Part shown: in pieces, positions 23,426 through 62,150 of the stretch
How the letters are laid out: every line of letters starts with the position of its first letter
How positions within the stretch are numbered: position 1 is the first letter of the stretch
Origin: Thermoanaerobaculia bacterium
GTDB taxonomy: Bacteria > Acidobacteriota > Thermoanaerobaculia > Gp7-AA8
NCBI GenBank assembly: GCA_036009105.1
Contig: DASYMJ010000009.1
Coordinates: 1,239-65,238 of the forward strand
Length of the DNA: 64,000 bases
Reading direction: 5' to 3'
Notes under the pieces: generated by a model
The model's input: the letters and a program-made list of their open reading frames with translations, nothing else
Told to the model about the DNA's origin: nothing
Databases searched by the model: none
Translations under genes and position numbers: made by a program

Positions 23426-23764
23426 TCAGCGCGTGGTGGGAAGGGGGGCGTCGAGGCTGGCCACGAGCGCTCGGCTCGCGGACGGCTGCGCCTCGTCGAG
23501 CCGCTCGACGGAGGCCACCGTGAACTCGGAAGCCAGGGTGGCGGTGGCGGCGGCCTGAGCCTGACAGGCCGGGCCGAGGATGCAGGTGTCGTTGTCGTAG
23601 TCTTCGATGCAGGTCACCCAGCCGAAGTGCAGCGCCGCAATGCACTGCGGCGGCTCGGTATGCGGTTCCGCCCGGATCTTGCACCGGACGCACGCCGCCA
23701 TGGCGGACGGCGCCGCGAGGAATGCGGCGACGACGAGGAACAGAGGAATCATTCGTTTCATCAT
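23426..23764 (-). CDS. small secreted cysteine-rich protein (paralogue 1)
   Basis: ORF track 112 aa. Signal peptide MMKRMIPLFLVVAAFLAAPSAMAA, 6 Cys, C-terminus EFTVASVERLDEAQPS. Confidence 0.55.
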   Translation of the reverse strand: MMKRMIPLFLVVAAFLAAPSAMAACVRCKIRAEPHTEPPQCIAALHFGWVTCIEDYDNDTCILGPACQAQAAATATLASEFTVASVERLDEAQPSASRALVASLDAPLPTTR

Positions 23765-23895: not shown

Positions 23896-24240
23896 TCAGT
23901 GGATGTTGGATTGGGTGAGGCTGGCCGAGGCGACGAGCGGCGTGGACGGCGAAGGCTGCCCGTCGTCCAGGCGCTCGACCGCGGCGACGGTGTACTCGGA
24001 CCCGAGCGCGGGAGTGGCCGCGGAAGCGGCGGCCGTCGCGCACACGATGTCGAGCTCACAGGTGCAGTCGGAGGGGTTCTCGAAACAATCCTCGTACCGC
24101 GTTCCGAACGTGACCTGCCGGCAGTGTGCGCACGGATCCGGCGGGAAGACCCGGCAGCGGTAACAGACGGCCGCCATGGCGGCCGGCGCCGCCGAGAAGG
24201 CGGCAAGAATGACGATGAGAGGAACAATCCGTTTGAGCAT
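23896..24240 (-). CDS. small secreted cysteine-rich protein (paralogue 2)
   Basis: ORF track 114 aa. Signal peptide MLKRIVPLIVILAAFSAAPAAMAA, 8 Cys, C-terminus EYTVAAVERLDDGQPS. Upstream region is also duplicated. Confidence 0.55.
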   Translation of the reverse strand: MLKRIVPLIVILAAFSAAPAAMAAVCYRCRVFPPDPCAHCRQVTFGTRYEDCFENPSDCTCELDIVCATAAASAATPALGSEYTVAAVERLDDGQPSPSTPLVASASLTQSNIH

Positions 24241-24329
24241 GAGAGCGATCTCCTTTCCGGCCCGGTCCCGCGTCTCTGGAAGGAATCTCGGCGCCGGAAA
24301 GGCGGAGCGCTAGAGTGATTTCTTGCCGG

Positions 24330-24421
24330 CCAGCGCCAGCCGGTGGAACTCCCCCCGGATCGCCCCCATCCCGATCGGCGCCGCGCACGGATGCACCCGG
24401 TTCGTGAGCAGCACCATGAGC
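24330..24421. repeat. 92-bp direct repeat copy A (relic original 3' end of beta-lactamase-family gene)
   Basis: Identical to 24903..24994 except 2 mismatches. In frame it continues ...EFHRLALAGKKSL-stop. Confidence 0.8.
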
Positions 24422-24431
24422 GCGGAACCCG

Positions 24432-24653
24432 CTAAAGGAGAGCGAGAAAATCGTCCACTGTCATGCCCGCGGCGCGGATGAGCGCGCGGAGGGTGCCGGT
24501 GGCGAGCTCTTTGTGCAACGGAATCGCCAGGTTCGCGCGCTGGCCCGCCTTCGTCAAAATGAGATGGCTTCCGACCTGCCCGGCGACGCTCCAGCCCGCG
24601 CGCTGAAACGCCCGAGCGGCGTCACGGCCGGAGATATTGCCCAGAGCGCCCAA
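24432..24653 (-). CDS. hicA: type II toxin HicA family
   Basis: ORF track 73 aa (TTG start). GWSVAGQVGSHLILTK...KELATGTLRALIRAAGM is HicA-like. Confidence 0.75.
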   Translation of the reverse strand: MGALGNISGRDAARAFQRAGWSVAGQVGSHLILTKAGQRANLAIPLHKELATGTLRALIRAAGMTVDDFLALL

Positions 24654-24656
24654 GCT

Positions 24657-24863
24657 TCAGATCGCGACGACGATCGGTTGTTCGTCCGCGGCCAGCCCGG
24701 CCACGGCTTTCTGATCTTCCGCCCAGAGCCAGCCGACGATTGCCTCTTTGATGTTTTCGAGCGCTTCCTTTTCATCGTTTCCCTGCGAAACGCAGCCCGG
24801 AAGCGCTGGGCACTCGACGACGTACATGCCGTCGGACTCCGACACTTTGACGTGAAAGATCAT
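24657..24863 (-). CDS. hicB: type II antitoxin HicB family (UPF0150)
   Basis: ORF track 68 aa. MIFHVKVSESDGMYVVECPALPGCVSQGNDEKEALENIKEAI. Confidence 0.75.
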   Translation of the reverse strand: MIFHVKVSESDGMYVVECPALPGCVSQGNDEKEALENIKEAIVGWLWAEDQKAVAGLAADEQPIVVAI

Positions 24864-24870
24864 GGCGGCG

Positions 24871-25914
24871 TTATACAGCGGCTGCCGTGGTTTCGGAATT
24901 CCCCAGCGCCAGCCGGTGGAACTCCCCCCGGATCGCCCCCATCCCGATCGGCGCGGCGCACGGATGCACCCGGTTCGTCAGCAGCACCATGAGCTGCTCG
25001 CGCCGCTTGTCGAACCACACGGACGTCCCGGTGAACCCGAAGTGTCCGAACGAGCCCTCGGACAGCATGCGCGTCGCGGGGCTGCTGTCGATGCGGAGGT
25101 GCCAGCCGAGGCCGCGGTTCTCGCCCAGGCCCTGCGTGTAATTGCGGGTGGCGAGATCGACCAGCGGCAGCGGCACCAGCTCGCCGCGGATGAACGCCTG
25201 GGCGATGCGGAAGACGGCGCGGGCGGTGGCGAAGAGGCCGGCATTGCCGGCCGTGCCGCCCAGGTGATGCGAGTTGCCGTCGTGCGTCTCGCCCCAGATC
25301 AGGCCGTCGCGGAAGCCGGTGATCGGCGCCAGGCCCCGCTCGGCGCACATCTTCCTCTCCCACGCCTGCGTCCACTCCGTCGCCGCGATGCGCGGCTTCA
25401 ACCCGGCCGGCGGGCGGAAGAGGGCATCCTGCAGACCGAGCGGCTGGAAGATCTGCGATTCCGCCAACGAAAGGTAAGGCCCGAGCGCGAAGTAGAGCAG
25501 GAAGAAGTTCAGATCGGAGTAGACCACGCGCGAGCCCGGCTCGTACTCCGGCCCATGCTCGAGGATCGCGCCGAGCGGATCCTGGTACGCGTACAACGGC
25601 AGCCAGGCGCGCAAGCCGGAGGTATGCGTCAGCAGGTCGCGATACCGATAGCCATGAAAGCGGTCCTCCAAAGAGAGGCCGGACTGCAGAAACAGCGTCG
25701 TGGTGATCAAAGCCTTGGTGGTCGACGCGCAGTCATAGATGGTGTCGATGGTGGCGGGCACCCGGAACGGCACGGCGACCGCGTTTCCGAGCGCCCCGAG
25801 GTGCGGCGGACCGGACAAAGGCCCGAAAGCGTACGAGGCCGAGGCGAAGCTTCCCAGCTCGATCTCGCGGCGCAGGAAATCGTCGATGGTCACCGCCCGC
25901 GGATTGTAGTGCAC
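24871..25914 (-). CDS. beta-lactamase family serine hydrolase (class C / esterase-like)
   Basis: ORF track 347 aa. SxxK motif CASTTK, YSD. 3' end lies within repeat copy B. Confidence 0.85.
   Translation of the reverse strand: MHYNPRAVTIDDFLRREIELGSFASASYAFGPLSGPPHLGALGNAVAVPFRVPATIDTIYDCASTTKALITTTLFLQSGLSLEDRFHGYRYRDLLTHTSGLRAWLPLYAYQDPLGAILEHGPEYEPGSRVVYSDLNFFLLYFALGPYLSLAESQIFQPLGLQDALFRPPAGLKPRIAATEWTQAWERKMCAERGLAPITGFRDGLIWGETHDGNSHHLGGTAGNAGLFATARAVFRIAQAFIRGELVPLPLVDLATRNYTQGLGENRGLGWHLRIDSSPATRMLSEGSFGHFGFTGTSVWFDKRREQLMVLLTNRVHPCAAPIGMGAIRGEFHRLALGNSETTAAAV
24903..24994. repeat. 92-bp direct repeat copy B (current 3' coding end of beta-lactamase-family gene)
   Basis: See copy A. 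Confidence 0.8.
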
Positions 25915-26037
25915 AGGAACGGCTGCGCACGCTCGCTGTCAACGGCGAATATCCCTTGTGGCTCAGCGGTTTAGAGCGTGCAAATAAGGGTGCTGGATGC
26001 CCTCCTCTTTCCTGTTAGCATCCGCACCGTCCAAATC

Positions 26038-29000
26038 ATGCTTCGTCTAGAAAAACTGGAAATCCACGGCTTCAAGTCCTTCTACGACCCTGCCCAACTC
26101 GCCTTCCCCTCGGCCATGACGGCCGTGGTCGGCCCGAACGGCTGCGGCAAATCGAACATCTGCGACGCCATCATCTGGGTCCTCGGCGAGAACCGCGCCT
26201 CCCACATCCGCGGCGAGACGATGGAAGACGTCATCTTCCAGGGCTCCGCCCGCCGCCGCCCCCTCTCCATGGGCGAAGTCACCCTCACCCTCGGCACCTC
26301 CAACGGCCACAGCGATCATCCCATGGCCGACGAGGGCCGCATCGTGATCAACCGCCGCGTCTTCCGCACCGGCGAGTCCGAGTTCCGCCTCAACGGCAAA
26401 CGGGTCCGGATGAAGGACATCTCCGACATCCTGATGGACACCGGCCTGGGCATCCGCAACTACTCGGTGATGGAGCAGGGGAAGATCGACCTCATCCTCT
26501 CCAACAAGCCGCAGGACCGCCGCCGCCTGATCGAAGAGGCGGCCGGCATCACCAAGTACAAAACGAAGCGCCGCGCCGCGGAGCTGAAGCTGGAAGAGAC
26601 CCAGCAGAACCTGCTCCGCATCGACGACACCCTCTCCGAGGTCACGCGCAACCTCAACTCCCTCAAGCGCCAGGCCGGCAAGGCCCGCCGCCACAAGGAG
26701 CTCTCCGAGCAGCTCTCCACCGCCAAGCGTGCGCTGTACAAAGGCCGGATTGTGCTAGCACAAACCGAGCAGGAGGCTGCCGGTCAGGCCGTGGCCGAGG
26801 CGCAGGCACGAGAGAGCGAGCTCGCCGCGCAGCTCGGCACGGACGAAGCCGAGCTGGCCGAGACCCGCACCTTCCACTCCGGCCGCGCCTCGCACGCCTC
26901 GAAAGTGCGCGAGGAGATGGCCGGCCTGACCGCGGACGTGGAGCGCCTCCGCTCCTTCCTCCAGCAGTCCGAAACGAACCTGGGCGACCTGATGCAGCGC
27001 ATCGAGAACGGCCGCGGCCAGATCGGGCAGCTGGAAGCGGAAGGCGCCGAACAGCAGCAGCTGCTCGATGAAAAGACGCAGCAGCTGGAGGCCGCGCGCG
27101 GCGAGCGCAACCGCCTGCGCGAGATCGCCGACCAGCTGGAGCGCGACCGGCAGGAGAAGTCGGATTCGGTGCGCCAGCACGAGAAGTCGCTGGCCGATGC
27201 GCGCGAGGCGCTCATGCGCACCATCGCCCGCATCTCCGAGTCGCGCAACCAGGTGCACCAGATCGAGATCGCCGTCGAAAAGTGCGAGTTCTATCTCTCC
27301 AAGCTGACCGAGAGCGCCCGCCGCGCGCTGGAGCATCGGGACGGCGCGAAGGCGACGGTCAACGACTGGAACGAGCGGGTGGCCGAGGCCGAGCAGGCCC
27401 TGCTCGAAGCGCAGCAGACCGCGCGCGAGGCCATTCAACTCCGCGACGAGCTCACCCGGCGCCGAGACGGCATGCGCGACTCGCTCGCTTCGACGCGCGA
27501 CCGCGTCTCGCAGATGAGCTATAAGATCGACTCGCTGCGCACGCTCCTCACCTCGCTGGAAGCGCAGGATGAAGACGTCCGCCGCGCCGTCCTGGAGCTG
27601 ATCCCGAACGCCACCTCGGCCGCCGAGGCCGTCCGCGCCGCGGAAGGTTTCGAAGCGGCCCTCGATACGCTGCTGCGCGAGCTCGCCAAGGCCTCCGTGG
27701 TGGACACCGCCGAGACCGCCATCGAAGCGGTCTCCCGTCTGCGCGAGCGCGGCGCGGGCCGCGGCGCCTTCATCACGCTCGATTACGAAGCAGCCGGCGA
27801 AGGGACGCGTCGCGGAGACGCGGCGTTCTCCATCGTCGGCGAAGGCCCCATCGCCGATGCCGTCCGCGCCGCCATCCCCGAGGCGTACATCGTGGGCGAT
27901 CTGCGCGAGGCGACGGTGCGCGCGAAGGAACGGCCGCACGCGACCTTCGTCACCCTGGACGGCGACGTCGTCCGCGGCCCGCTCATCATCGGCGGCAAGA
28001 CGGAAGGCGCAACGCCGGGCGTCTTTTCCATCAAGCGCCAGCTCTCCGATCTGGAGCAGGCCCTCGGCTCGGAAGAGACGCGCGCCAGCGGCATCGCCGC
28101 CCAGCTGCAGACGGTGGAAGAGGAGCTGCGCGCTGCTGACGACGCGCGCATCCTGGCCGAGGAACGGGCGCGCGGCGCGGAGCAGGAGCTGCGCGAGCGG
28201 CGCACCGAGCGCGAGCGCGCCGGCACCGAGCTGCAGCGCTTCGACCGCGAGCTCGCCGCCGCCTCGGAAGAGCAGACGTTGTACGCCGAGGAGAAGGAAC
28301 AGCTCCTCGCCCGGAAGAACGCGGCGATCGACGACCTGCGCCAGCTGGAAGAGAAAGAGCAGGCCCTGCACGAGCAGATCCGCCTGCACGAGGAGGAGCT
28401 CGGCACCTCGCGCGCGGCCTTCGAGGAAGTGACGGAAGTCGCCTCCAAGGCGCGGGTCGACGTGGAGACGGCGGCCGGCAACGTGAACTCCATCCAGCGC
28501 GAGCACGAGAACCTCTCCCGCATCGTCCTCTCCCTCGGCGCGCGCGCCACGCAGCTGCAGCAGGAGCTGGAGTCGCTGGCCCGCAAGCGCGCGGACACGG
28601 AAGTGGCGGTGGAGAACGCGCGCGGCCAGCTCGACGCCTCCCTGCAGAAATTGCACGAGCTGTCCGAGGCTCGGGTGTCTTTGGAAGCCGAGGTTGCGGA
28701 CCTCGCCGTCCGCGTGCAGGAGCTCGATGCGCGCGCCATCGTCTCGCGCGAGCAGTGGAACACGGCCAAGGACGCGCTGTTCGAGTCCGAGCGGCGCCGC
28801 GACCGCGCCGCCTCCGCCTTCGAGCTGCTGCGCGAGCAGATCTCGCTCGATCTGCATGCCGGCATCGACGCGCTGGCCGAGGTCGAGCCGCCCTCTTCCG
28901 ATGATGCGCGCGCGTGGCTGGAAGCCGAGGTGGCCAGGGTCGCCGATCAGATCGAGAAGATCGGACCGGTGAACGTGCTCGCCATCGATGAGCATCAGGA

Positions 29001-29565
29001 GCTGGAGCAGCGCGAGTCGTTCCTCCGCACGCAGCGCGACGACCTGGTGCAGGCCATCGAGTCGCTGCGCCAGACCATCCGCAAGATCAACATCACCTCC
29101 CGCGAGCTGTTCCGCGAGGCGTTCAACGCCGTGAACGACTGGTTCGGCCAGCTCTTCACCTCCCTCTTCGGCGGCGGCGCGGCGCGCATGCAGCTGCTCG
29201 ACGAGGACGACGTGCTGGAGTCGGGCATCGAGCTGGCGGCCCAGCCGCCGGGCAAGAAGAACCAGTCCATCGCGCTGCTCTCGGGCGGCGAGCGGGCCCT
29301 CACCGCGCTCGCCCTTTTGTTCGCCATCTTCCGCTACAAGCCGTCGCCCTTCTGCATCCTGGACGAGGTCGACGCGCCGCTGGACGAGGTGAACAACGAA
29401 CGCTTCGTCCGCCTGGTGCGGGACATGTCCCGCGACACGCAATTCATCGTCATCACCCACTCCCGACGCACCATGGAGGCGGCCGACGCGCTGTACGGCG
29501 TGACGATGGAAGAAGCGGGCTGCTCGCGCCTGGTCTCGGTGCAGTTCGCGGACATGGAGGGTTAG
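26038..29565 (+). CDS. smc: chromosome segregation protein SMC
   Basis: Start MLRLEKLEIHGFKSF within ORF 25978..29565. Walker A GPNGCGKSN, long coiled coils, hinge, C-terminal LSGGERALTALALLFAI (signature) and ILDEVDAPLD (Walker B). Confidence 0.95.
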   Translation: MLRLEKLEIHGFKSFYDPAQLAFPSAMTAVVGPNGCGKSNICDAIIWVLGENRASHIRGETMEDVIFQGSARRRPLSMGEVTLTLGTSNGHSDHPMADEGRIVINRRVFRTGESEFRLNGKRVRMKDISDILMDTGLGIRNYSVMEQGKIDLILSNKPQDRRRLIEEAAGITKYKTKRRAAELKLEETQQNLLRIDDTLSEVTRNLNSLKRQAGKARRHKELSEQLSTAKRALYKGRIVLAQTEQEAAGQAVAEAQARESELAAQLGTDEAELAETRTFHSGRASHASKVREEMAGLTADVERLRSFLQQSETNLGDLMQRIENGRGQIGQLEAEGAEQQQLLDEKTQQLEAARGERNRLREIADQLERDRQEKSDSVRQHEKSLADAREALMRTIARISESRNQVHQIEIAVEKCEFYLSKLTESARRALEHRDGAKATVNDWNERVAEAEQALLEAQQTAREAIQLRDELTRRRDGMRDSLASTRDRVSQMSYKIDSLRTLLTSLEAQDEDVRRAVLELIPNATSAAEAVRAAEGFEAALDTLLRELAKASVVDTAETAIEAVSRLRERGAGRGAFITLDYEAAGEGTRRGDAAFSIVGEGPIADAVRAAIPEAYIVGDLREATVRAKERPHATFVTLDGDVVRGPLIIGGKTEGATPGVFSIKRQLSDLEQALGSEETRASGIAAQLQTVEEELRAADDARILAEERARGAEQELRERRTERERAGTELQRFDRELAAASEEQTLYAEEKEQLLARKNAAIDDLRQLEEKEQALHEQIRLHEEELGTSRAAFEEVTEVASKARVDVETAAGNVNSIQREHENLSRIVLSLGARATQLQQELESLARKRADTEVAVENARGQLDASLQKLHELSEARVSLEAEVADLAVRVQELDARAIVSREQWNTAKDALFESERRRDRAASAFELLREQISLDLHAGIDALAEVEPPSSDDARAWLEAEVARVADQIEKIGPVNVLAIDEHQELEQRESFLRTQRDDLVQAIESLRQTIRKINITSRELFREAFNAVNDWFGQLFTSLFGGGAARMQLLDEDDVLESGIELAAQPPGKKNQSIALLSGGERALTALALLFAIFRYKPSPFCILDEVDAPLDEVNNERFVRLVRDMSRDTQFIVITHSRRTMEAADALYGVTMEEAGCSRLVSVQFADMEG

Positions 29566-34137: not shown

Positions 34138-37100
34138 ATGAAGAAACTCGTCGTCATGGCCATGGCCCTGTGCAGCTTCTCAATCGGCTGCCATAGGGAA
34201 GACACGAAAGCAGCGGCGGTGTGGCGGACGGTGGAGCCGCGGCTGACGGCCGCCACGAAATGGCAACCGTGCACCCGCCCTCAATGCGGCGCCGGGCCCT
34301 CCGCATCCATTGCGAGCACCTGTACTGTCGATATCCGCACCCACGAGCAGGCCCTGTACGCCATTGCGCATCAGCCGGAATGCCTCGGATCGGCGATCGA
34401 CGTGTTGAGCCGTCTCGCGAAGCACGATCTACGCGCCCGAAGCGACCTCGCCGCGGCGTATTACGTCCGCGCGCAGGTGGAGGACCGCCCGATTTACCTG
34501 CTGATGGCCTGGGAGCAGATCAAAGACCTGCCCGGCCTGCCCGAGGCGCAATTCAATGTTGCGTTGATTCAGGAGAAGCTGGGCCGTACGGAGGATGCAA
34601 GGCGCTCCTGGGATGCATACCGTGCGCGCGACGTCTCGCCATGGGGGAATGAGGCCCGCCAGCACGGCGACCGGTTGAACGAGGAGTTGCGCCATGCGGC
34701 GTACAAGGAGTGGCCGGTCAATCGGCGCCTGTTGCGCGCGGCTCTTGCCGGCCAGGACCACGCCAGGGTAGTGAGCCTGATCCGCGCGTTTCCCACTCCG
34801 GCGCAGACGTATCTGGAGGACGAGGTCATCCCGCAATGGGCAGCCTCCGGTGCCCAAAAGGATCTGGACGCCGCAAGACTGCTGGCCGAGGCGGTGTCGG
34901 AGGTACAGCAGGACCCATTCGCCAGGGACGTCGTCGCGGCCATTACCAATGCATCCGATCGGAGCGTATTGAGGAATGCGCACAAGGCGTATGCAAGGGC
35001 GCGACGGGCGGAGCGTGGATTCGACAGAAAGAACGCGCTCGCGCGTTATGACAGAGCGGTGACGCTGCTCACCCGCGGGCATAGTCCCTTGCGGTTCAAC
35101 GCGGAGCTCGGACTGGCAGTCAATCGCTTCCTCGAGAAAAAGGGACGGCCTGAAGGTGCGCTGGAACGCCTGAAACGCGAAATTCCGTCCATTTACCCGC
35201 ACACCGCGGCACGGGTCATGGCCACCGTCGCGTTCGCGCAGAACTTCAGTGGCAATCACCTCGGGGCTCGCGAGCAGTACGAGAGGGCAACGAACGCCTA
35301 CAGGCGCCTGCACGACTACGAGTACATGACTGCAGTGCAGAGCGCCGCGTCCGGCGTCTCCCTGGAACTCGGCGACAAAGAGCGCGCCTGGCACGAAGCT
35401 TTGGAGACGAACGAGCACGCCGCGGAGATCGCCGACCCGCGCCGCCGCCATGTTCGCCTGGGGGCGCTCTCCGATGCCGCACAGGCGCTCGGGCATCCCG
35501 ATGTCGCGCTGCTCTATCAAAGCGAAGCGGTCGAAGCCATGCAGCAGGAGCTGGTCAACGAGCCCGTTCAGAACCTGGATGTGATCCAGGGACTGCAGCA
35601 TCACTTGAGCGTTGCGCTGCGGAATCGGGCCAAGGTCAGGCTTGCGCTTGACCCCGAACAGCGCGAGAAGGCCTCCGCTGATCTCAGGGACGCTTTAGGT
35701 CTGGTGGAGACCAAAGAGGACGCGGACACACAGAACAGCAGGGACCTTCGATCGAGCATCTATACGGTGGAAGGCTCGCAGCTTCTGCGCGCCGACCCGC
35801 AAGGCGCGGTCAAAGCCTTCACCAAGGCCATCGAGCTGCTGCCGGAAAACGAGCTGCCGAACCTCCGCACCTCGCTGCTCACCCGGCGCGCAAGAGCGTT
35901 CCGGCTGGCCAAACATCCGAAGGAAGCCGAAGCCGACCTGGAAGCGGCGCTTGCGGAGTTGGATCGCGAGGAAGCGATTCAGCTGGAGAACCGGCGCAGT
36001 GGAAAAGAAGAGGAGATCTGGAGCTTATTTTTTGAACGCTTTCAAGACACCTATCGGGAGCTGATCGACCTGCTCGCCGCGCGTGGCCAATACGAACAAG
36101 CGTTCGCCTATGCCGAGCGAGCGAAGGCTTTCGAGCCGCTCGATCTCATTCTTCACCTCCCCTATGCGCCGCAACGATTCCGGGAGTTGACGAAAGGCCG
36201 TGAGCCGATCGCATTGCACGAGATTCAGGCCGCTTTGCCGGCGGAGACGTACCTCCTGGAGTACTCCGTGCTGGAGGACAGGACCATCGTCTGGATCATC
36301 GGCCGGCGGTTGTCCCGTTGGATGTCGCTCCCCGTGGGCCGCAATGAAATCGCCTCGTGGCGCGCGAGAATCCAGGAGGCGGTCGAGCAATCCGACGACC
36401 ATGGTCTCAAGAGCAATCTGGCATTGGCTTACGACGGATTGTTGCAGGAGCCGTGGAAGCTGATTCCGAAAACGGCGAGCCGTGAACCGCGGATCGTGAT
36501 CATTCCGGACGGCGAGATGCGCGGGCTGCCGTTCAATGCGCTGCGACATCCCATCAGGGGCTACTTCGTCGAACACGCGATCGTCAGCGTCCACGGCAGC
36601 GCCACGCTTTATGTTTTCTCCTTGTTGCGCGACGGCGAGTTGAAGACGGGCAATGCGTCCGCGCTGCTGATCGGTGATCCGGAATTCGACGCGACCCTTC
36701 GAGAGGCCAGGGAGCTGCTCCGCCTCCGCGGTGCGCGAAACGAGGTAAACAACATCAGCCAGTTCTACGCGCCGAACGCCACGGTGAGAAAAGACAAGGA
36801 CGCCACAATTGCTGATTTCCTACAAAGAGCAGTCCATAGCGAGATCATCCACATCGCGGCGCACGGCGTGGTCGATGAGGAGCACCCTTCCAGGTCGGCA
36901 ATCCTGCTGGCCAGGACGGCCACCGACTCCGGCAGGCTCGACGCGCAGACGCTCTCCGGATTGCGCCTGAAGCTGGCGCGGCTCGTCGTGCTGGCCAGTT
37001 GCAGCAGCGCGGGCGGCGTTCCTGTAGGTCCGGAAGGAGTCGCGCCGCTGGTGCGGCCATTCATCGGCGCCGGCGTGCCGGCTGTTGTGGGCAGCCTCTG

Positions 37101-37320
37101 GGAATTCGCCGACGCCACAGCGGAACCTCTCCTCGTGTCTTTTCATCGGCACTATCGGGAACCAGGCCAGGACGCGGCAACAGCGCTGCGCGCGGCCCAA
37201 CTCGAAGCGCTCGATGAAAACAAACCCTTGCGCGCATGGGCCCCGTTCGAGGTGATCGGCTACGCATCGTCACCCGTCCCGGCTCCGGCAGCAGGCACGA
37301 AGGAGAAACGACCACCATGA
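34138..37320 (+). CDS. CHAT domain (caspase-like clan CD peptidase) TPR-repeat lipoprotein
   Basis: ORF track 1060 aa. Lipobox MKKLVVMAMALCSFSIGC. TPR-like helical repeats. C-terminal CHAT with IIHIAAHGV and LVVLASCSSAGG (His/Cys dyad). Confidence 0.8.
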   Translation: MKKLVVMAMALCSFSIGCHREDTKAAAVWRTVEPRLTAATKWQPCTRPQCGAGPSASIASTCTVDIRTHEQALYAIAHQPECLGSAIDVLSRLAKHDLRARSDLAAAYYVRAQVEDRPIYLLMAWEQIKDLPGLPEAQFNVALIQEKLGRTEDARRSWDAYRARDVSPWGNEARQHGDRLNEELRHAAYKEWPVNRRLLRAALAGQDHARVVSLIRAFPTPAQTYLEDEVIPQWAASGAQKDLDAARLLAEAVSEVQQDPFARDVVAAITNASDRSVLRNAHKAYARARRAERGFDRKNALARYDRAVTLLTRGHSPLRFNAELGLAVNRFLEKKGRPEGALERLKREIPSIYPHTAARVMATVAFAQNFSGNHLGAREQYERATNAYRRLHDYEYMTAVQSAASGVSLELGDKERAWHEALETNEHAAEIADPRRRHVRLGALSDAAQALGHPDVALLYQSEAVEAMQQELVNEPVQNLDVIQGLQHHLSVALRNRAKVRLALDPEQREKASADLRDALGLVETKEDADTQNSRDLRSSIYTVEGSQLLRADPQGAVKAFTKAIELLPENELPNLRTSLLTRRARAFRLAKHPKEAEADLEAALAELDREEAIQLENRRSGKEEEIWSLFFERFQDTYRELIDLLAARGQYEQAFAYAERAKAFEPLDLILHLPYAPQRFRELTKGREPIALHEIQAALPAETYLLEYSVLEDRTIVWIIGRRLSRWMSLPVGRNEIASWRARIQEAVEQSDDHGLKSNLALAYDGLLQEPWKLIPKTASREPRIVIIPDGEMRGLPFNALRHPIRGYFVEHAIVSVHGSATLYVFSLLRDGELKTGNASALLIGDPEFDATLREARELLRLRGARNEVNNISQFYAPNATVRKDKDATIADFLQRAVHSEIIHIAAHGVVDEEHPSRSAILLARTATDSGRLDAQTLSGLRLKLARLVVLASCSSAGGVPVGPEGVAPLVRPFIGAGVPAVVGSLWEFADATAEPLLVSFHRHYREPGQDAATALRAAQLEALDENKPLRAWAPFEVIGYASSPVPAPAAGTKEKRPP

Positions 37321-38393
37321 GCACGTTCATTTTGCGCATTCTCTTCAGCGGCTTGATCAGCTTCGTCCCCAATCAGGACGGCACCGAGCTGACGGTCCTC
37401 CTGGTCAACGTCGACCACACCTACCACACCTCCGACGGCACCCACCTCGATCACCACAAACCGCTCCTCCTCGCCCGCGGCGGCGGCTGCACCGGCACCT
37501 GTCCCACCGACGACGACGCAATCGCCCGGTTCATCTATCCCGATCAGGCGCAGTCGGCAAGACTCGATTCGCTGGCCACGGCGGTCAGCGGCGGCGGCGC
37601 GTGGCTCCTCGACAACTCCAAGCTCACCCTGCAGAAAGGCAGCACCAACGACCCCAACCTCCCCGCCCTCAGCATCGTGCGCAATGCGCGCGGCTCGACC
37701 AACAACGTGCTGGACCTCATCCCCACCACCTCCGCCGAGCGGGAGGACTACAGCTGGGTCGCCGATCTGAAATCGATCTGCTCATCCTGCGACCTCAAAT
37801 CCGCCGTGCACGACGCCGAGCCGCCGGCCGGCCTCGTTGCCGCGCGCTTCAAGCTGCGCAACGGACGCGTCTTCACCTACTCGGTGGCGCGCATCGGCAG
37901 CGACGTCACGCCGGTGCAGTTCAAGCGCCTCAACGGCCAGGGCTCGGTCTCGCCCTACTCGCAGGCCGTCGCCACCTGGGTCGCGGCGGACATCGAGGTC
38001 AGCGGCGACAGCATCGAGATGATCGACCAGAAGTTCGACGGCAGCTCCAGCCGCTCGATGACCCTCACCCCCGATGAAAACGGCCGGGTGGAGATGGCCG
38101 TGCTGAACCTGCCGACCTTCGCGCCGCCGCCGGCCGCGCGCGTCAGCGCGCCCGGCATCGGCAAGCACTTCGAACGGTACTACGACCTCGTCGACACGCC
38201 GCCCTCGAGCGGCGACCGCCTCGTCCCCTGGGCCGGCGCGGCGCCCAACACGCCGTCGTATCCGCAAGTCGCGTGGGATGACATCCACCCCACCGAAGAG
38301 CTCTGGTCGGAGCTCCTCAACCAGCTGCGGCTCAACATCGGCCGCACCACCTACGACCGGACCATCTGTCCGCCCTTCAACGGCACCCCGTAA
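37317..38393 (+). CDS. hypothetical protein (358 aa) within caspase operon
   Basis: Start MSTFILRILFSGLISFV with SD AAGGAGAAACG. ATGA overlap with CHAT gene stop. Confidence 0.55.
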   Translation: MSTFILRILFSGLISFVPNQDGTELTVLLVNVDHTYHTSDGTHLDHHKPLLLARGGGCTGTCPTDDDAIARFIYPDQAQSARLDSLATAVSGGGAWLLDNSKLTLQKGSTNDPNLPALSIVRNARGSTNNVLDLIPTTSAEREDYSWVADLKSICSSCDLKSAVHDAEPPAGLVAARFKLRNGRVFTYSVARIGSDVTPVQFKRLNGQGSVSPYSQAVATWVAADIEVSGDSIEMIDQKFDGSSSRSMTLTPDENGRVEMAVLNLPTFAPPPAARVSAPGIGKHFERYYDLVDTPPSSGDRLVPWAGAAPNTPSYPQVAWDDIHPTEELWSELLNQLRLNIGRTTYDRTICPPFNGTP

Positions 38394-38453
38394 CTCCTTC
38401 GACGGTCCGCCGCACCCCGCGGCGGGCCGTCCCTTCCGCTGGAGATCACGACG

Positions 38454-38888
38454 ATGAGAACGAACTTCTTCCTGGTGATGCTCGTCGCCTGCGCGGCTCT
38501 GACCAGCTGTACGAGCGATGCCGCCCCCGCGACCACCATCCCTCCTCGCATGGCCAAGAATCATGGCCGGAGCGATCGCATCCGCGCCGCAGCCGCATTC
38601 ACCAGCCGCTACGCGAGCTCGCCCTTCGCCGGTTGGAAAGTGCGTGCCGAGGCGGCCGGGCCGCTTTGCAATGTGCTGGTCATCCGGACGCCGATCGTCA
38701 TGGAAGGCGCGATGGTCGATGCGATGCATCACGGCGATGGCGAATACGAGATCGACGACGGCGGCGTGCAGCGTTTCTATCTGGAAGAGACGTTCCGCGG
38801 CGTCGCCTACCGCGACGGCTCCGACCGCATCTGGACTTACGGCGCGGTGAAGGAGGCGGAAGTCGAGGAGCTCGAGCCATGTCACTGA
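38454..38888 (+). CDS. hypothetical lipoprotein (144 aa)
   Basis: ORF track. Lipobox LVACAALTSC. Confidence 0.5.
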   Translation: MRTNFFLVMLVACAALTSCTSDAAPATTIPPRMAKNHGRSDRIRAAAAFTSRYASSPFAGWKVRAEAAGPLCNVLVIRTPIVMEGAMVDAMHHGDGEYEIDDGGVQRFYLEETFRGVAYRDGSDRIWTYGAVKEAEVEELEPCH

Positions 38889-41029
38889 TGGCTCGTCTCA
38901 CCATGGTTCTCGCGCTGCTGGCGTTCGCGCTTGATGTCGATGCGCAGGTGCATCGGCGCGCGCTGCTGATCGGCATCAACGACTACAGCGCCTCGCGCTT
39001 CACCGCCCGCCCCCCAACCGACCGCGATTGGCCGAACCTCGGCGGCGCCGTGCGCGATGCCGGCATCCTGCGGGAGCTGCTCGTCCTGCTCTACGGCTTC
39101 GAGGAGCGAGACATCGTCACGCTCAGCGATCAGGCCGCGACGCGCGAGGCCATCCTGCAATCGACCGAGGAGCAGCTCGTCCGCGGCGCGGCGAAGGACG
39201 ACGTGGTCTTTTTCTACTTCGCCGGCCACGGCTCGCAGGTGGCGAACTCGCTCTCCGCGGAGCCGGATCAGCTCGACGAGTCGATCGTACCGGCCGACTC
39301 GCGAGCCGGCGCGCCGGACATCCGCGACAAGGAGCTGCGCGCGCTCTTCAACCAAATCCTCGACCGCGGCGCGCGGCTGACGGTGATGCTGGACAGCTGC
39401 CATAGCGGCTCCGGCGCACGCGGCCTGGCGACGGGCGCGCATCCACGCGGCGTGCGGCCTGATCTGCGCGACATCCGCGATGGCGCCGAGGCCGGTCCGC
39501 GTCCGGAAGATCGCGGCGCACTGGTGCTGACCGCGACGCGGGACGACGGCATCGCGCTCGAGACGCGCGACGCGGATGGGCTGCACGGCGCTTTCTCGCT
39601 CGCCTGGATCAAGGCCATGCGCGACGCGGCGCCGGGCGAGCCGGCGAGCGAGACGTTCCTCCGCGCGCAGGCGCGGATGCGCGCCGGGATGCCGTTCCAG
39701 GAGCCGGTGATGGCCGGCGACGCCGCGGCGCGAGCCCGCCCCTTCCTCGGCACACGCATCGATCGGAGCGGCGGCCGCAATGCGGTCGGCGTGGAGCGCG
39801 TGCTGAAAGACGGGACGGTGCTGCTGCAGGGAGGGTGGGCGAACGGTCTCGCCGTGGGGGCCCAGCTCCGCGCCGCGAACGGCACGCGGTTGACCGTGAC
39901 CACCATGCTCGGCCTCGGCCGCAGCGAAGCTCGCGTCGAGGCGGGGCCGGCCGCCATGCAACCCGGCTCGCTGCTGGAAGTGGTCGGCTGGGCCGCCCCT
40001 CCCGGCCGCCCCCTGCGTGTTCATGTGCCGAAGGCGCCGCACGTGGCTGCTCTCGCCTCCCGGCTGTTCGCCGCCGCGAACCAACGCGGCATCCGCTGGA
40101 TCGACGATCCCTCCGAAAGCACGCCGACCCATCAGCTCCGCCTCGGCGCCGGCGGCTGGGAGCTCATCAGCCCGGACGGGGATGCGCAACGTTTCGGCGC
40201 CGAGGAGGCGGTGGAGCACGTCCCTGCCGGCTCGTCGCTGTTCGTTCAACTGCCCGCGCCCGCGGCCATCGACATCGCGTCGACGGCGAGCGCCGAAGAG
40301 GCGGACTACATCCTGGTGGGGCGTTACGTGAAGCAGCGGCTCGAATACGCCTGGGTGCGGCCGGGAGTGCGCAAGCGCGACCAACGCGGCAGCGGCCTGC
40401 CGGTGCGCTCGGACTGGATCCGCAACGGCCGCGAAACGGCCGCCATCCTTCGCGACACGCTCCTCCGCCTGCGCCGCATCCACGCCTGGCAACATCTGCA
40501 GTCGCCGCCCGAGTCGCGCTCGCCGTACCGGCTGGCCTTGCGCGGTGCGCGCAGCGGTGAGCTCGTGCAGGACGGCGTCGTCATCGGCGGCCAGTCATAC
40601 CGGCCGGTGCTGCGGCCGCCGGCGACCGCCACCGATATCCAGCCGCGCTTCTTCTACGTCTTCATCGTCGACCGGCACGGCAAGAGCTATCTCGCCTTCC
40701 CCGGCGGTGCGGTGGAGAACCGCTTCCCTCTCGGCGCGCCTGCGAAAGAGGTCGCGCTCGACCGGTTCCGGGTGCTGCCCCCCTTCGGAGTCGACACGTA
40801 CTTTCTACTGTCCACGGACGAGCCGCTCCCCAACCCCTGGATCCTGGAGTGGGACGGCGTCCGTGCGCGGTGCCCGCGGGCTCCCACCGCGCTCGAACAG
40901 ATGCTCATGCTCACCGCGTCCGGCGAGCGGGCCGGGAGGGGGGTGACGCCGGTCGGCTGGTCGCTGGAGCGCGTGGTGTACCAGTCGGTTCCACCTCCGG
41001 TGAAACGGAAACCGAAGAAACGCCACTAA
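38879..41029 (+). CDS. caspase-family (peptidase C14) secreted protein with ~500-aa C-terminal extension
   Basis: Start MSLMARLTMVLALLAFALDVDAQ (alternative ATG at 38888, which is ATGA-coupled). ALLIGINDY...FYFAGHG...DSCHSG caspase His/Cys dyad. Confidence 0.8.
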   Translation: MSLMARLTMVLALLAFALDVDAQVHRRALLIGINDYSASRFTARPPTDRDWPNLGGAVRDAGILRELLVLLYGFEERDIVTLSDQAATREAILQSTEEQLVRGAAKDDVVFFYFAGHGSQVANSLSAEPDQLDESIVPADSRAGAPDIRDKELRALFNQILDRGARLTVMLDSCHSGSGARGLATGAHPRGVRPDLRDIRDGAEAGPRPEDRGALVLTATRDDGIALETRDADGLHGAFSLAWIKAMRDAAPGEPASETFLRAQARMRAGMPFQEPVMAGDAAARARPFLGTRIDRSGGRNAVGVERVLKDGTVLLQGGWANGLAVGAQLRAANGTRLTVTTMLGLGRSEARVEAGPAAMQPGSLLEVVGWAAPPGRPLRVHVPKAPHVAALASRLFAAANQRGIRWIDDPSESTPTHQLRLGAGGWELISPDGDAQRFGAEEAVEHVPAGSSLFVQLPAPAAIDIASTASAEEADYILVGRYVKQRLEYAWVRPGVRKRDQRGSGLPVRSDWIRNGRETAAILRDTLLRLRRIHAWQHLQSPPESRSPYRLALRGARSGELVQDGVVIGGQSYRPVLRPPATATDIQPRFFYVFIVDRHGKSYLAFPGGAVENRFPLGAPAKEVALDRFRVLPPFGVDTYFLLSTDEPLPNPWILEWDGVRARCPRAPTALEQMLMLTASGERAGRGVTPVGWSLERVVYQSVPPPVKRKPKKRH

Positions 41030-58855: not shown

Positions 58856-60442
58856 CTACTTCACCGTCCTCAACACATTGAACTTCATCAGTTCCTGGAA
58901 CGTGATGGTCGAGTCGAGGTCCTCCCGGGAGAGGCGCAGCGACTGGTGCATGGCCTCCAGGATCATCTCCATCCAGAGGGCCAGCTCCTCGTCGCGCGAG
59001 GCCTGCACGTACTTGCGGGCGGTCTCGGCCAGCTTCGGCACGCGGTTCAGCTCGCGGAAGTATTCGGCGAACGGCTGCTCGTCGGAGAGCGTGATCTTGT
59101 TCCCTTCCACGAACCAGGCGAGGATCGACTCGTAGGCCGGGTCGCCTTTCGGCGCGTTGCCGCCCCGAGGCTCTTCCTCGCGCTTCGGCTGCTTGCGCTG
59201 CTTGCGGCCGGCGAACATGTCTTCCAGATCGTCCTGCTCCATCTCGCCGTAGCCGCGGCGGTCGCGGTCGCGCCCCGTCGTGCCGGCGCGCTCGACCGGC
59301 GGCAGCTTCGACTCGAACAGCTTCGCCACCGCCTGCCCGATCAGCTTCCTGGCCACCACCTCGGCGCCCTGTTGCTCGCCCTCGTACACCATCTCCACCT
59401 TGCCGGTGATGGCGGGCAGGAGCATGGAGAGGTCGGAGAGGCGGGGGAAGATGAAGCGCTCGCCGGTCAGCGCGGCGCGGCGCTCCAGGTTCGACTGCAG
59501 GAGCTCCATCGCGGCGATGGTCAGGCGCGCGGAGACGCCGGAGGATTGGTCGACCAGCTCCGAGCCGCGGGCGACGAAGGCGATGTTCTCGACCAGGTCG
59601 CGCAGATACGGCGGGATCTCGATGGTGGCGCGGTTCTCCCGGTCGGTCCACGCCTCCTGGTCGGTGATGCGGCGCGCGGTCTCGATCTGCTGCGGATAGT
59701 GCGTCAGGATCTGCGAGTCGATGCGGTCCTTGAGCGGCGTGATGATGTTGCCGCGGCTGGTGTAGTCCTCCGGGTTCGCGCTGAAGACGAGGACGACGTC
59801 CATGGGGATGCGCACCGGGAAGCCGCGGATCTGCAGGTCGCGCTCTTCGAGGATGTTCAGCAGCGCCACCTGGATGCGCGGCGCGAGGTCGGGCAGCTCG
59901 TTGATGGCGAAGATGCCGCGGTTCGTGCGGGGGATGATGCCGTAGTGGATGACTTCTTCATCCGCGTAGGTGAGCCGCTGGTTCGCGGCCTTGATCGGGT
60001 CGATGTCGCCGACGAGGTCTGCCACGGTCACGTCCGGCGTGGCCAGCTTCTCGCGGTAGCGCTCCTCGCGATGCAGCCAGGCCACCGGCAGCTCATCGCC
60101 CTTTTCGGCGGCGAGGCGGCGGCAGCGCTTGCAGGTCGGCTCGAGCGGCGAGTCGTTGATCTCGCAGCCTTCGATGACCGGCACCTTCTCGTCGAGCAGG
60201 GCGGTGAGGGAGCGGAGGATGCGCGTCTTGGCCTGGCCGCGGAGGCCGAGGAGGATGATGTCGTGGCGGGAGAGGACGGCGTTGTGGATGGCCGGAATGA
60301 CGGTGCGCTCGTAGCCGTGGATGCCGGGGAAGGTCGTTTCGCGGCGCGCGATCTTCTCGAGGAGGTTGGCGCGCATTTCGTCTTTGACGGAGCGGATGCG
60401 GTAGCCGGAGGCGCGCAGCTCGCCGAGGGTGTGGATGTTCAT
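58856..60442 (-). CDS. MoxR / Mg-chelatase ChlI-like AAA+ ATPase
   Basis: ORF track 528 aa. Walker A LLGLRGQAKT. Walker B/sensor region IFAINELPDLAPRIQVALLNILEE. Overlaps pth stop at 60439-60442. Confidence 0.75.
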   Translation of the reverse strand: MNIHTLGELRASGYRIRSVKDEMRANLLEKIARRETTFPGIHGYERTVIPAIHNAVLSRHDIILLGLRGQAKTRILRSLTALLDEKVPVIEGCEINDSPLEPTCKRCRRLAAEKGDELPVAWLHREERYREKLATPDVTVADLVGDIDPIKAANQRLTYADEEVIHYGIIPRTNRGIFAINELPDLAPRIQVALLNILEERDLQIRGFPVRIPMDVVLVFSANPEDYTSRGNIITPLKDRIDSQILTHYPQQIETARRITDQEAWTDRENRATIEIPPYLRDLVENIAFVARGSELVDQSSGVSARLTIAAMELLQSNLERRAALTGERFIFPRLSDLSMLLPAITGKVEMVYEGEQQGAEVVARKLIGQAVAKLFESKLPPVERAGTTGRDRDRRGYGEMEQDDLEDMFAGRKQRKQPKREEEPRGGNAPKGDPAYESILAWFVEGNKITLSDEQPFAEYFRELNRVPKLAETARKYVQASRDEELALWMEMILEAMHQSLRLSREDLDSTITFQELMKFNVLRTVK

Positions 60443-61026
60443 GTTCTGGGGTCTTCCTGTGGGTCGCGATTGAAATCGTTCATCGCCCGCTTGAGGTCGC
60501 CGCGGGCGAAGAGAAGGAGGGCGTCGACGCTGCGCTCGATGCCGCGGCCGACCAGCGGCAGCTCGTCTTCGGCAAAGGGATCGAGGACGTAGTCGCGCAG
60601 GCGGCTGTCGGTGTAGGTCTCACCACGCACGCCGAATCGTAAGCGCGCGAAGCGCTCGCTCGCAAGCGAGCTCACGATGGAGCGCATCCCGTTGTGCGTC
60701 CCGGCCGACCCGTTCGGCCGGATCCGCAACTTGCCGAGCGGCAGGTCGATCTCATCAAAGACGACGAGGAGGTCGTCGGTGCTCTCCAGGTACGCATTGG
60801 CGAGCAGCTTCACCGCGTCCCCGGAGGCGTTCATGTAGGTGAGCGGCTTGGCGATGATGACGCTCCCCCCCGCCACCCGCCCCTCGCCGGTCATGGCGTT
60901 CTTCTGATGATGGTCGAGGTCGATGCGGAACTTCTTCGCAAACGCATCGACCACCATCCACCCGACGTTGTGCCGCGTGGCGGCGTATTCGCGCCCCGGA
61001 TTGCCCAATCCCACGATCAACTTCAT
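60439..61026 (-). CDS. pth: peptidyl-tRNA hydrolase
   Basis: ORF track 195 aa. MKLIVGLGNPGREYAATRHNVGW ... GTHNGMRS. Confidence 0.9.
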   Translation of the reverse strand: MKLIVGLGNPGREYAATRHNVGWMVVDAFAKKFRIDLDHHQKNAMTGEGRVAGGSVIIAKPLTYMNASGDAVKLLANAYLESTDDLLVVFDEIDLPLGKLRIRPNGSAGTHNGMRSIVSSLASERFARLRFGVRGETYTDSRLRDYVLDPFAEDELPLVGRGIERSVDALLLFARGDLKRAMNDFNRDPQEDPRT

Positions 61027-61053
61027 GCGAGGGCGAAGGGTACAATGCCGCCC

Positions 61054-61374
61054 ATGCCCGCGCTACCGGACGTGATCACGGAGAACATGGAGGAGATCCG
61101 CGCGCTGTGCGTGAAGCACGGCGTGAAGCGCCTCGCGGTTTTCGGGTCGGCGGTGAAGGGGACGTTCGATCCGGAGCGAAGCGATCTCGATTTCGTGGTG
61201 GAACTGGAATCGCCCGACCCGCTCGAACGCGGCCGCCGCTACCTCGAGTTCTGGGACTCGCTGGAAGCTCTCCTGGGCCGGCGCGTCGATCTCGTTACCG
61301 GGTCGAAGATTCGCAACCCCTATTTCCGTGAGTCGATCGCCGCGGCTCACCTCGATCTCTATGCCGCCGCTTGA
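61054..61374 (+). CDS. MNT-type nucleotidyltransferase (type II TA antitoxin-like), copy 1
   Basis: MPALPDVITENMEEIRALCVKHGVKRLAVFGSAVKG..DPERSDLDFVVE. Start conserved with copy 2 at 61632. Confidence 0.65.
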   Translation: MPALPDVITENMEEIRALCVKHGVKRLAVFGSAVKGTFDPERSDLDFVVELESPDPLERGRRYLEFWDSLEALLGRRVDLVTGSKIRNPYFRESIAAAHLDLYAAA

Positions 61375-61621
61375 AGTTCGGAAGCTGCTCTGGGACGTCA
61401 TCGACTACGCCAGCTACATCGAAGAAGCGATCGCCGGCCGAACCGCGGATGACTACGAGACCGATCGCAACCTGAGGTTCTCTGTCTTCTACGCGCTGCA
61501 AACCGGCTCGTGCATGGCTATGGCGCAATCGACCCGGACATCGTCTGGCGCATCATCCACACCCACCTCCCCCTCCTCCTCCGCGAAGTCCGCGCCCTGC
61601 TCGGCGATGATGACGGCGTAA
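61361..61621 (+). pseudogene. HepT (DUF86) toxin remnant, copy 1: internal deletion/frameshift
   Basis: MPPLEVRKLLWDVIDYASYIEEAI... In another frame, RAANRLVHGYGAIDPDIVWRIIHTHLPLLLREVRALL (HepT C-terminus). The central RLEIIGEA...PW segment is missing. Confidence 0.55.
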
Positions 61622-61631
61622 AATAGCGCCC

Positions 61632-61951
61632 ATGCCCGCGCTACCGGACGTGATCACGGAGAACATGGAGCAGATCCGGCGCCTCTGCCGCGAGTACCAC
61701 GTGACGAAGCTGACCGTGTTCGGATCCGCCGCGCAGGGGATGTTCGATCCGGAAACGAGCGACCTCGATTTTTGGTGGCGTTCGAGTGGGATGACGATCC
61801 GCTGGTAACGGGCCGCCGGTACAACGAATTGTGGAGCAAACTGCTGGATCTTTTCGACCGGCACGGCGATCTAATTGAAGTGACGACGATCAAAAATTCC
61901 TACCTGGCTGACGCAATCGACGAGACGCAGCAACTGCTTTATGCAGCGTGA
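61632..61951 (+). pseudogene. MNT nucleotidyltransferase copy 2 with +1 frameshift at a T-run
   Basis: MPALPDVITENMEQIRRLCREYHVTKLTVFGSAAQGMFDPETSDLD. Frameshift at GATTTTT. Then FLVAFEWDDDPLVTGRRYNELWSKLLDLFDRHGDLIEV... Confidence 0.55.
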
Positions 61952-62150
61952 AGTTCGCTCACTGCTAGGTCACGTCGCCGAAGCGGCCGACGGCATCCTT
62001 CGCTACACCGCCGCGAAGACGTTTCAGGATTACCAGGCTGACGAGATGTTGTGCCGCGGTCTGGGACAAGATCCACTCCCACCTCCCCCTCCTCCTCACC
62101 GAGGTCCGCGCGCTGCTCGGCGAGTGATCGGTGGTGAACTTCCTGCATAA
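61941..62150 (+). pseudogene. HepT (DUF86) remnant, copy 2: internal deletion
   Basis: MQREVRSLLGHVAEAADGILRYTAAKTFQDYQADEML, then out-of-frame IHSHLPLLLTEVRALLGE. Confidence 0.5.

Follow-up and report, generated by a model that had tools for sequence, protein, structure and literature searches.

A displaced hydrolase gene end beside a hicBA toxin-antitoxin cassette in Thermoanaerobaculia: a likely scar of recombination between alleles

We analysed a 64,000-nt stretch of DNA (the window) from a metagenome-assembled genome (MAG) of a Thermoanaerobaculia bacterium (assembly GCA_036009105.1, contig DASYMJ010000009.1, positions 1,239 to 65,238), in which a compact hicB-hicA toxin-antitoxin module stands directly behind a gene for a serine hydrolase. 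The module (481 nt; 24422-24902) is bracketed by a 92-nt direct repeat of the hydrolase gene end (24330-24421 and 24903-24994; start-to-start spacing 573 nt), whose two copies differ by 2 mismatches. The repeat had been pointed out in an earlier note made from the sequence, and alignment bore out its extent and position. The explanation that we favour, with some reserve, is that the locus is the scar of host recombination between an allele occupied by the cassette and one that was empty or differently occupied. We draw here on what was observed of the anatomy of the locus, its relatives, the conflicting ancestry of its flanks, the synonymous-only divergence of the copies and the recurrence of such repeats at other hicBA loci; the mechanism, the direction of the exchange and the part played by toxin-antitoxin addiction are proposals built on these observations.

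The hydrolase gene, hicB and hicA all lie on the minus strand. The first of these (24871..25914; PF00144, beta-lactamase-fold or CubicO-type, Pfam E 2.7e-30) is divergent from smc (25978-29565, plus strand) and encodes 347 aa from a GTG start. An exact-protein lookup with this reading frame gave no match; the NCBI protein P0001, annotated from a Thermoanaerobaculia MAG, is 100% identical to the window hydrolase and has a shorter start, the ATG at 25893, which leaves 340 aa. In an alignment of 18 homologues, the conserved part of the protein stops at ...EFHRLAL. Copy B of the repeat (24903..24994), encoding LMVLLTNRVHPCAAPIGMGAIRGEFHRLAL, is the functional coding 3' end of this gene, after which the frame reads GNSETTAAAV-stop, just as the earlier note had it. 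These last ten codons and the stop are supplied by a 39-nt leader, GGAATTCCGAAACCACGGCAGCCGCTGTATAACGCCGCC (24864..24902), between copy B and the hicB ATG. The TAA falls inside a conserved TGTATAAC box, the -10-like box of hicBA, and the insertion scar accounts for the unusual C-terminus with which the hydrolase ends. Beyond the leader follow hicB (24657..24863; antitoxin, 68 aa), an intact hicA (24432..24653; toxin, 73 aa, TTG start), a 10-nt spacer, CGGGTTCCGC (24422..24431), which reaches from the hicA stop to copy A and forms the right-hand joint, and then copy A itself (24330..24421).

Copy A continues in frame into a different tail, (A)GKKSL-stop (24310..24329; TAG at 24312-24310), which enters an intergenic motif, AAGAAATCACTCTAG, found behind the hydrolase gene whether or not a relative carries hicBA. 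Because the tail runs into the same motif as in these relatives, copy A and its tail can be recognised as the displaced native 3' end of a hydrolase allele, as had been proposed. Two contigs from other Joint Genome Institute (JGI) metagenomes, L101 and L102, are 100% identical to the window over 5.8 kb and 3.2 kb, respectively, and contain both copies with the same two mismatches. In both, gene callers list copy A as a 35-aa open reading frame (ORF) behind hicA, a spurious annotation that the displaced hydrolase end explains. Within the 64-kb window, a 52-nt core of the repeat has no match beyond these two sites, and 100 shuffles produced none, which speaks against a generic genome-wide repeat. 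The insert had been described as having about 58% GC; this holds for hicB (58.9%) but not for hicA (66.7%) or the 481-nt cassette as a whole (63.2%), such that only hicB is clearly GC-poor relative to the window (67.8%).

Comparison with relatives provides both empty and occupied versions of the site. A scan of genome contigs gave relatives at 56–62% identity, one partial match at 82% (L019) and one distant match at 41%. The cassette is absent from L004 and L019, where ...HRLAL is followed by a short tail and AAGAAATCACTCTA; in L004 (79% identity) the arrangement reads ...HRLAL-SARKY-TGA-AAGAAATCACTCTAC, the intergenic motif having the form TGAAAGAAATCACTCTAC. The closest of the empty-site relatives, P0005 (86% identity), is without the cassette by its gene table. 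The occupied relatives L001 and L002/L003, with hydrolases 85–86% identical to that of the window, share its left junction (CTGG|GGAATTCC) and a homologous ten-codon tail (GNSEIAAGAV in L001, ENSTFSAGAV in L002/L003), behind which come the leader known from the window and an intact hicB. The tail is therefore not new to the window, contrary to what the earlier note had supposed. No second copy of the hydrolase end was found in L001-L003; in L001, the intergenic motif, as TGAAAGAAATCACTCTAG, follows 17 nt past hicA. In all three, hicA is frameshifted, so the toxin has decayed while the antitoxin was kept in relatives that share the hydrolase-hicBA junction. In L001 (1826-2052) and L002 (7259-7470), both of which have an intact hicB, what is left of hicA carries a frameshift or an internal deletion, and the annotation has no gene at these positions.

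The same hicBA subfamily is convergent with, and abuts, the hydrolase end in L008, L014, L021, L023 and L031, and lies 1–3 kb from the hydrolase gene, or is left as fragments only, in L007, L009, L011 and L025. The association of hicBA with the hydrolase gene is thus old in this subclade and polymorphic, being present, absent or inverted, and the cassette is no fresh foreign island. Since L001-L003 share the junction but lack copy A, the duplication in the window is a separate or later footprint. Two independent contigs from a close relative (L005 and L006; 87% hydrolase identity) both end 6 nt past the hydrolase stop, which suggests strain-level heterogeneity exactly at this junction in natural populations. 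Elements resembling repetitive extragenic palindromes (REP) or miniature inverted-repeat transposable elements (MITE), in the form of GC-rich palindromes such as GTGGGGGCGGGCTTCAGCCCGCCTAAAGCCGGCCCCCAC, occupy the same intergenic spot behind the hydrolase gene or hicA in relatives (L002 7460-7530; L007 1860-1930 and 3600-3700), and in L007 one of them lengthens the hydrolase ORF.

The two flanks of the cassette group with different relatives. An unbroken alignment of the window with L001, at 88.7% identity, reaches from smc to position 24430, no more than 2 nt from the hicA stop, beyond which similarity falls to about 70%. For the hydrolase gene, the window is closest to the occupied relatives L001/L002 (86–87%, against 79% for the empty L004/L019), whereas for the CarboxypepD_reg gene downstream it is closest to the empty ones (75.7%, against 69–70% for L001/L002); within the two groups, the downstream genes are 77% (L001-L002) and 91% (L004-L019) identical. 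By comparison of sequences, these conflicting groupings locate a recombination boundary at copy A or close to it. One flank is collinear with the cassette-bearing lineage and the other appears to be of different ancestry, which is the pattern of one-sided homologous recombination.

The copies themselves look like separate functional alleles and not like an in-situ duplication of a target. In the window they differ at two sites, both synonymous (CTG/CTC for Leu and GCC/GCG for Ala). When the window is taken together with three further loci described below (L031, L067 and L082), and the count is limited to conserved coding sequence, the differences between copies are 12 synonymous to 0 non-synonymous, against a random expectation of 26.5% synonymous. 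Wholly random changes would give 12 out of 12 with a probability of 1e-7, and in-situ models in which the copies are born identical and the non-coding one drifts would do so with a probability of 4e-3 to 7e-5. It is because the differences are synonymous only that we take the copies to be two functional alleles joined by recombination.

Comparable repeats recur around other hicBA cassettes. We screened hicBA loci from metagenomes (64 non-redundant loci besides the window) for direct repeats in the 150-nt flanks with a score of at least 18. Five of the 64 loci (about 8%) carry such flanking repeats, compared with 11 of 5006 control placements of the same length at random positions in the same sequences (0.2%; Fisher p 1e-6). 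In L047, the last 20 codons of gatA with the stop and 9 nt are repeated 2 nt after hicA as a 76-nt, 100% identical segment. In L082, the displaced gatA end has diverged, the 45-nt pair differing at about 15% of its positions and sharing no long stretch of identity. L031 has the end of the same hydrolase family beside an inverted cassette, with the displaced end (...HRLGR-stop) abutting a PIN-domain gene, and in L080 about 120 nt of the recA upstream region are repeated. Finally, in L067 a displaced parB end with a TATAAT box separates one hicBA pair from another that differs from it. These two hicB-hicA pairs of L067 (463-1500; 54% HicB identity) are stacked behind parB, and the same parB-end and TATAAT segment precedes each of them. 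Cassette end points vary among the five loci, from 13 to 62 nt before the ATG and from 2 to 51 nt after the hicA stop, and so do repeat lengths, from 26 to 120 nt. We left one further repeat, in L076, out of the count, since it has the look of a dispersed intergenic repeat (145 nt; 175 and 355 nt off the cassette).

We propose that hicBA had long been resident directly behind the hydrolase gene in part of the Thermoanaerobaculia when, in the window lineage, DNA of a cassette-bearing strain recombined with that of a cassette-free strain. On one side this would have been an ordinary homologous exchange in conserved sequence; on the other it would have involved either an illegitimate joint or the single crossover of a small re-circularised fragment. 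The second joint would have fallen 92 nt upstream of the hydrolase gene end, leaving copy B, from one allele, fused to the gene and the cassette, and stranding copy A, from the other allele, behind hicA together with its AGKKSL-stop. If this is correct, the 10-nt spacer at 24422..24431 would probably be the illegitimate joint. Since the L082 pair is 15% divergent, an illegitimate second joint is favoured over a RecA crossover within the repeat. The exchange might have run in either of two directions: the cassette may have been imported with its anchor in smc-hydrolase, or the downstream region may have been replaced by empty-site DNA without deletion of the cassette. Toxin-antitoxin addiction would presumably disfavour recombinants and pop-outs that lose hicBA, and repeat-flanked layouts would then persist. 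We rejected as unparsimonious a route in which the 573-nt unit was first duplicated in tandem and the second cassette was then precisely lost.

There is an experimental precedent for such an outcome. Of 60 products obtained in Escherichia coli with one-sided homology, 56 had the homologous segment duplicated over 109–950 bp, which comes about when re-circularised DNA integrates by a single crossover (Amarir-Bouhram et al. 2011, PMC3240628); classical homology-facilitated illegitimate recombination (HFIR), in contrast, usually yields an insertion with a deletion and not a duplication (PMC3240628). The window locus is like the products of both in its one homologous flank, one non-homologous joint and cassette-sized insert, and like the single-crossover class in the direct duplication of the homologous segment around the insert. 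It differs from the experiments in being a natural event in uncultured Acidobacteriota, with a proposed mechanism and shorter duplications, and in concerning a chromosomal toxin-antitoxin cassette at the 3' end of a housekeeping gene. HFIR is reported by de Vries and Wackernagel (2002) and Prudhomme et al. (2002), and C-terminal displacement with orphan arrays by Jackson et al. (2009). HFIR-type displacement has been proposed for effector-immunity modules of type VI secretion systems (T6SS) and for rearrangement hotspot (Rhs) modules (Kirchberger et al. 2017, PMC5361080). In these systems, as in contact-dependent inhibition (CDI), new modules are added behind conserved sequence and old 3' ends are pushed downstream as orphans. 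The stack in L067, with its two hicBA pairs behind parB and the displaced parB end between them, is of this kind. The displaced piece at the locus studied here comes from an unrelated housekeeping gene and not from the toxin gene, however, and the module is an intracellular type II toxin-antitoxin system.

Several points weigh against recombination between alleles as the source of the repeat. The zone downstream of the hydrolase gene is variable and contains paralogous genes, and the conflict between the flanks could reflect a different, older event. The two synonymous differences of the window are weak by themselves, it being possible that they are two neutral synonymous hits (about 8% by chance), and none of the relatives compared shares either variant base of copy A. 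The controls of the screen were random positions and not accessory genes, which means that the enrichment may not be specific to toxin-antitoxin loci. Both the 92 nt of the window and, in particular, the 45-nt, 15%-divergent pair of L082 are short for a RecA crossover, so that a crossover within the repeat would be less probable than an illegitimate joint. In addition, the proposal presupposes competence or another route of DNA transfer in these uncultured bacteria.

Other explanations have to account for the same features. The layout is formally that of an integrative element bounded by attL and attR at a gene 3' end, with the native end displaced, and the earlier note had accordingly likened it to islands that integrate at tRNA genes. 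The cassette would then be a remnant or a non-autonomous element of this type, such as a cis-mobilizable element (CIME), with an attP carrying the last 92 nt of the hydrolase gene; a tyrosine or serine recombinase, whose gene lies elsewhere or has been lost, would have integrated its circular form to give copies B and A as attL and attR. This would suit the observation that, whichever way hicBA is turned, its place in the hydrolase gene is essentially identical from one genome to another (directly behind ...HRL-A/G), and an element-borne gene end also predicts synonymous-only divergence. Known elements that target 3' ends (tRNA-gene islands; ICESt1 and CIME at fda) likewise carry repeats of the target end and keep the gene intact by means of the insert. 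However, no integrase or transposase Pfam domain, and hence no cognate integrase, was found among 26 ORF translations between 11.8 and 41 kb (about 29 kb), and no recombinase domain in the syntenic relatives of the locus; the neighbourhood is made up of syntenic core genes. Occupied L001-L003 have the same junction with no second att-like copy, L082 has no long identical core, the repeat boundaries differ even at the same gene between the window and L031, and other loci use other targets (the gatA and parB 3' ends and the recA upstream region). Because targets, repeat lengths and cassette end points differ, and with no fixed att core, one site-specific enzyme is an unlikely source, and we regard an integrative element as quite improbable. 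Integron cassettes do not duplicate their target. The minimal toxin-antitoxin cassettes of chromosomal integrons, which possibly stabilise their neighbourhood, are comparable in content, but only 10 nt separate the hicA stop from copy A here, no attC-like inverted-repeat site was seen at the cassette ends and no integron integrase (intI) was found within 11.8–41 kb.

The duplication might instead be as old as the insertion itself, made in a common ancestor of L001, L002 and the window, with gene conversion keeping it nearly identical in the window lineage and deletion removing it in the others. The shared left junction and tail do point to one ancestral insertion, the 92-nt region is conserved (L001 differs by only 3 nt from copy B and is 94.6% identical to copy A), and the loci at gatA include a degraded displaced copy (L082) beside a perfect one (L047). 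Nevertheless, a non-coding copy should have decayed over the time in which the hydrolase DNA diverged by approximately 13%, and conversion between 92-nt repeats 573 nt apart competes with deletion of the cassette. L001 has the ancestral TGA stop and the motif right behind hicA and shows no sign that a copy was lost, the intact hicA of the window and the frameshifted one of L001-L003 suggest different histories, and the conflict between the flanks is left unexplained, all of which makes this account unlikely. A duplication in situ, by staggered-cut insertion, replication slippage or template switching and with no second allele, is suggested by direct repeats lying immediately beside a compact insert, and some non-LTR (long terminal repeat) retroelements make long duplications of variable length. 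Neither terminal inverted repeats at the cassette ends (24422/24902) nor, among the translations between 11.8 and 41 kb, a transposase were found, though, and 92 nt (26–120 nt elsewhere) is to our knowledge far above the target-site duplications of bacterial transposons, so that the cassette does not look like a transposon or insertion sequence. The 12:0 synonymous bias over four loci is itself improbable under such models, and relatives carry the insert with no duplication; we consider this origin very unlikely. Least credible of all is an artefact of assembly from a mixture of strains. The source is indeed a MAG contig, and L005 and L006 break exactly at the hydrolase end. Yet the identical structure with the same two mismatches in two other metagenome samples makes a simple artefact unlikely, similar structures occur in five unrelated assemblies, and a 92-nt repeat is below typical final k-mers, the path from the end of hicA into the repeat requiring real reads.

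The module is an ordinary new member of the HicAB type II toxin-antitoxin systems as judged by its sequence features. HicA matches PF07927 over positions 1–58 of 58 (51.9 bits, cutoff 27; E 8e-14), and its GSH motif at residues 28–30 aligns with those of PDB 1WHZ and 4P78 (HicA3). HicB, with 2338 homologues, matches PF15919 (30.5 bits, cutoff 27) and PF21748 (27.9 bits, cutoff 27.3) and is similar to the HicB of PDB 6G1C (E 0.005). It consists of the N-terminal HicB (partial RNase H-like) fold only, and 3 nt separate its gene from hicA. The pair is thus like the HicA/HicB systems of Yersinia pestis (HicA3-HicB3; 4P78), Burkholderia pseudomallei (6G1C) and Thermus (TTHA1913; 1WHZ) in its Pfam domains, gene adjacency and G-x-H motif. 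It differs from them in that the antitoxin comes first, as a 68-aa HicB lacking a DNA-binding domain, in that hicB apparently has a leaderless start 6 nt past a conserved TATAAC box, and in being known from sequence.

HicB relatives of at least 75% identity retain a leader of the form GGAAT..GCTGTATAAC-N6-ATG together with hicB even where the flanks are unrelated (L007, L009, L011, L014, L021, L023 and L025); remoter relatives have an ordinary TATAAT...AAGGAG...ATG leader instead. Because the same leader-hicB-hicA arrangement recurs with unrelated flanks, it is a discrete unit of about 481 nt, and the view of the insert as a minimal hicBA cassette is upheld. The -10-like box lies at a constant 6 nt before the hicB ATG and there is no Shine-Dalgarno sequence. 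Conservation of the leader argues that it is probably the hicBA promoter, and the spacing of the box and the missing Shine-Dalgarno sequence suggest that the hicB mRNA is leaderless; a simple sigma-70 scanner did not call a promoter there.

How small chromosomal toxin-antitoxin pairs move is poorly understood, since most of them have no mobility genes. Here the event appears to have left a readable footprint, in the form of a displaced end of the neighbouring gene with signs of allelic origin, and repeats of this kind recur at about 8% of related loci. A search of a partial literature library for toxin-antitoxin cassettes in connection with HFIR, flanking direct repeats or 3'-end duplications returned nothing relevant, and a recombination footprint at a toxin-antitoxin cassette is apparently undescribed. 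A broader and rather doubtful possibility, which we raise tentatively, is that the 3' ends of conserved genes are places where stand-alone chromosomal toxin-antitoxin cassettes can spread, form stacks and be maintained with no recombinase of their own. Host recombination between occupied and empty alleles would leave gene-end fragments, and addiction would kill recombinants, or pop-outs through the repeats, that lose the cassette. If so, flanking duplicates would in general record, and allow one to date, either the gain of a toxin-antitoxin system or a failed 'curing' by recombination, and the mobility of these systems could be gauged from them across genomes. Such a signature, if general, would make it possible to detect and date gain or cassette stacking from sequence, and to test whether addiction shields cassettes from deletion by cassette-free DNA.

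Downstream of the displaced hydrolase end lie two paralogous minus-strand genes (23426-23764 and 23896-24240) for small Cys-rich proteins of 112 and 114 aa, which have signal-peptide-like N-termini and no Pfam match. The two genes share an 87-nt 5' region (78% identical) and an upstream GAGACGCGGG motif, and between 1 and 4 copies are present in the relatives L001, L002 and L004. The intergenic motif behind the hydrolase gene, (TG)AAAGAAATCACTCTAG, is found at 24310-24324 in the window, at about 2065-2085 in L001 and at about 1675-1692 in L004, and might be a promoter or operator for these Cys-rich genes.

Elsewhere in the window, no tandem repeat was found at 60.5–63 kb, and the matches of control placements in this region are paralogous toxin-antitoxin genes. 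At 61040-62123, beside pth (60439-61026), there are two tandem paralogous nucleotidyltransferase/HEPN-like (MNT-HEPN type) pairs, visible as direct repeats of 154 nt (77%) and 65 nt (86%). Assigned by eye from their translations, they would represent another toxin-antitoxin-like stack beside a conserved gene. Finally, a gene for a CHAT-domain protein (1060 aa) lies close to one for a caspase-like Peptidase_C14 protein (798 aa) at 34138-41029 (plus strand), and the pair might be a defence- or cell-death-type module.

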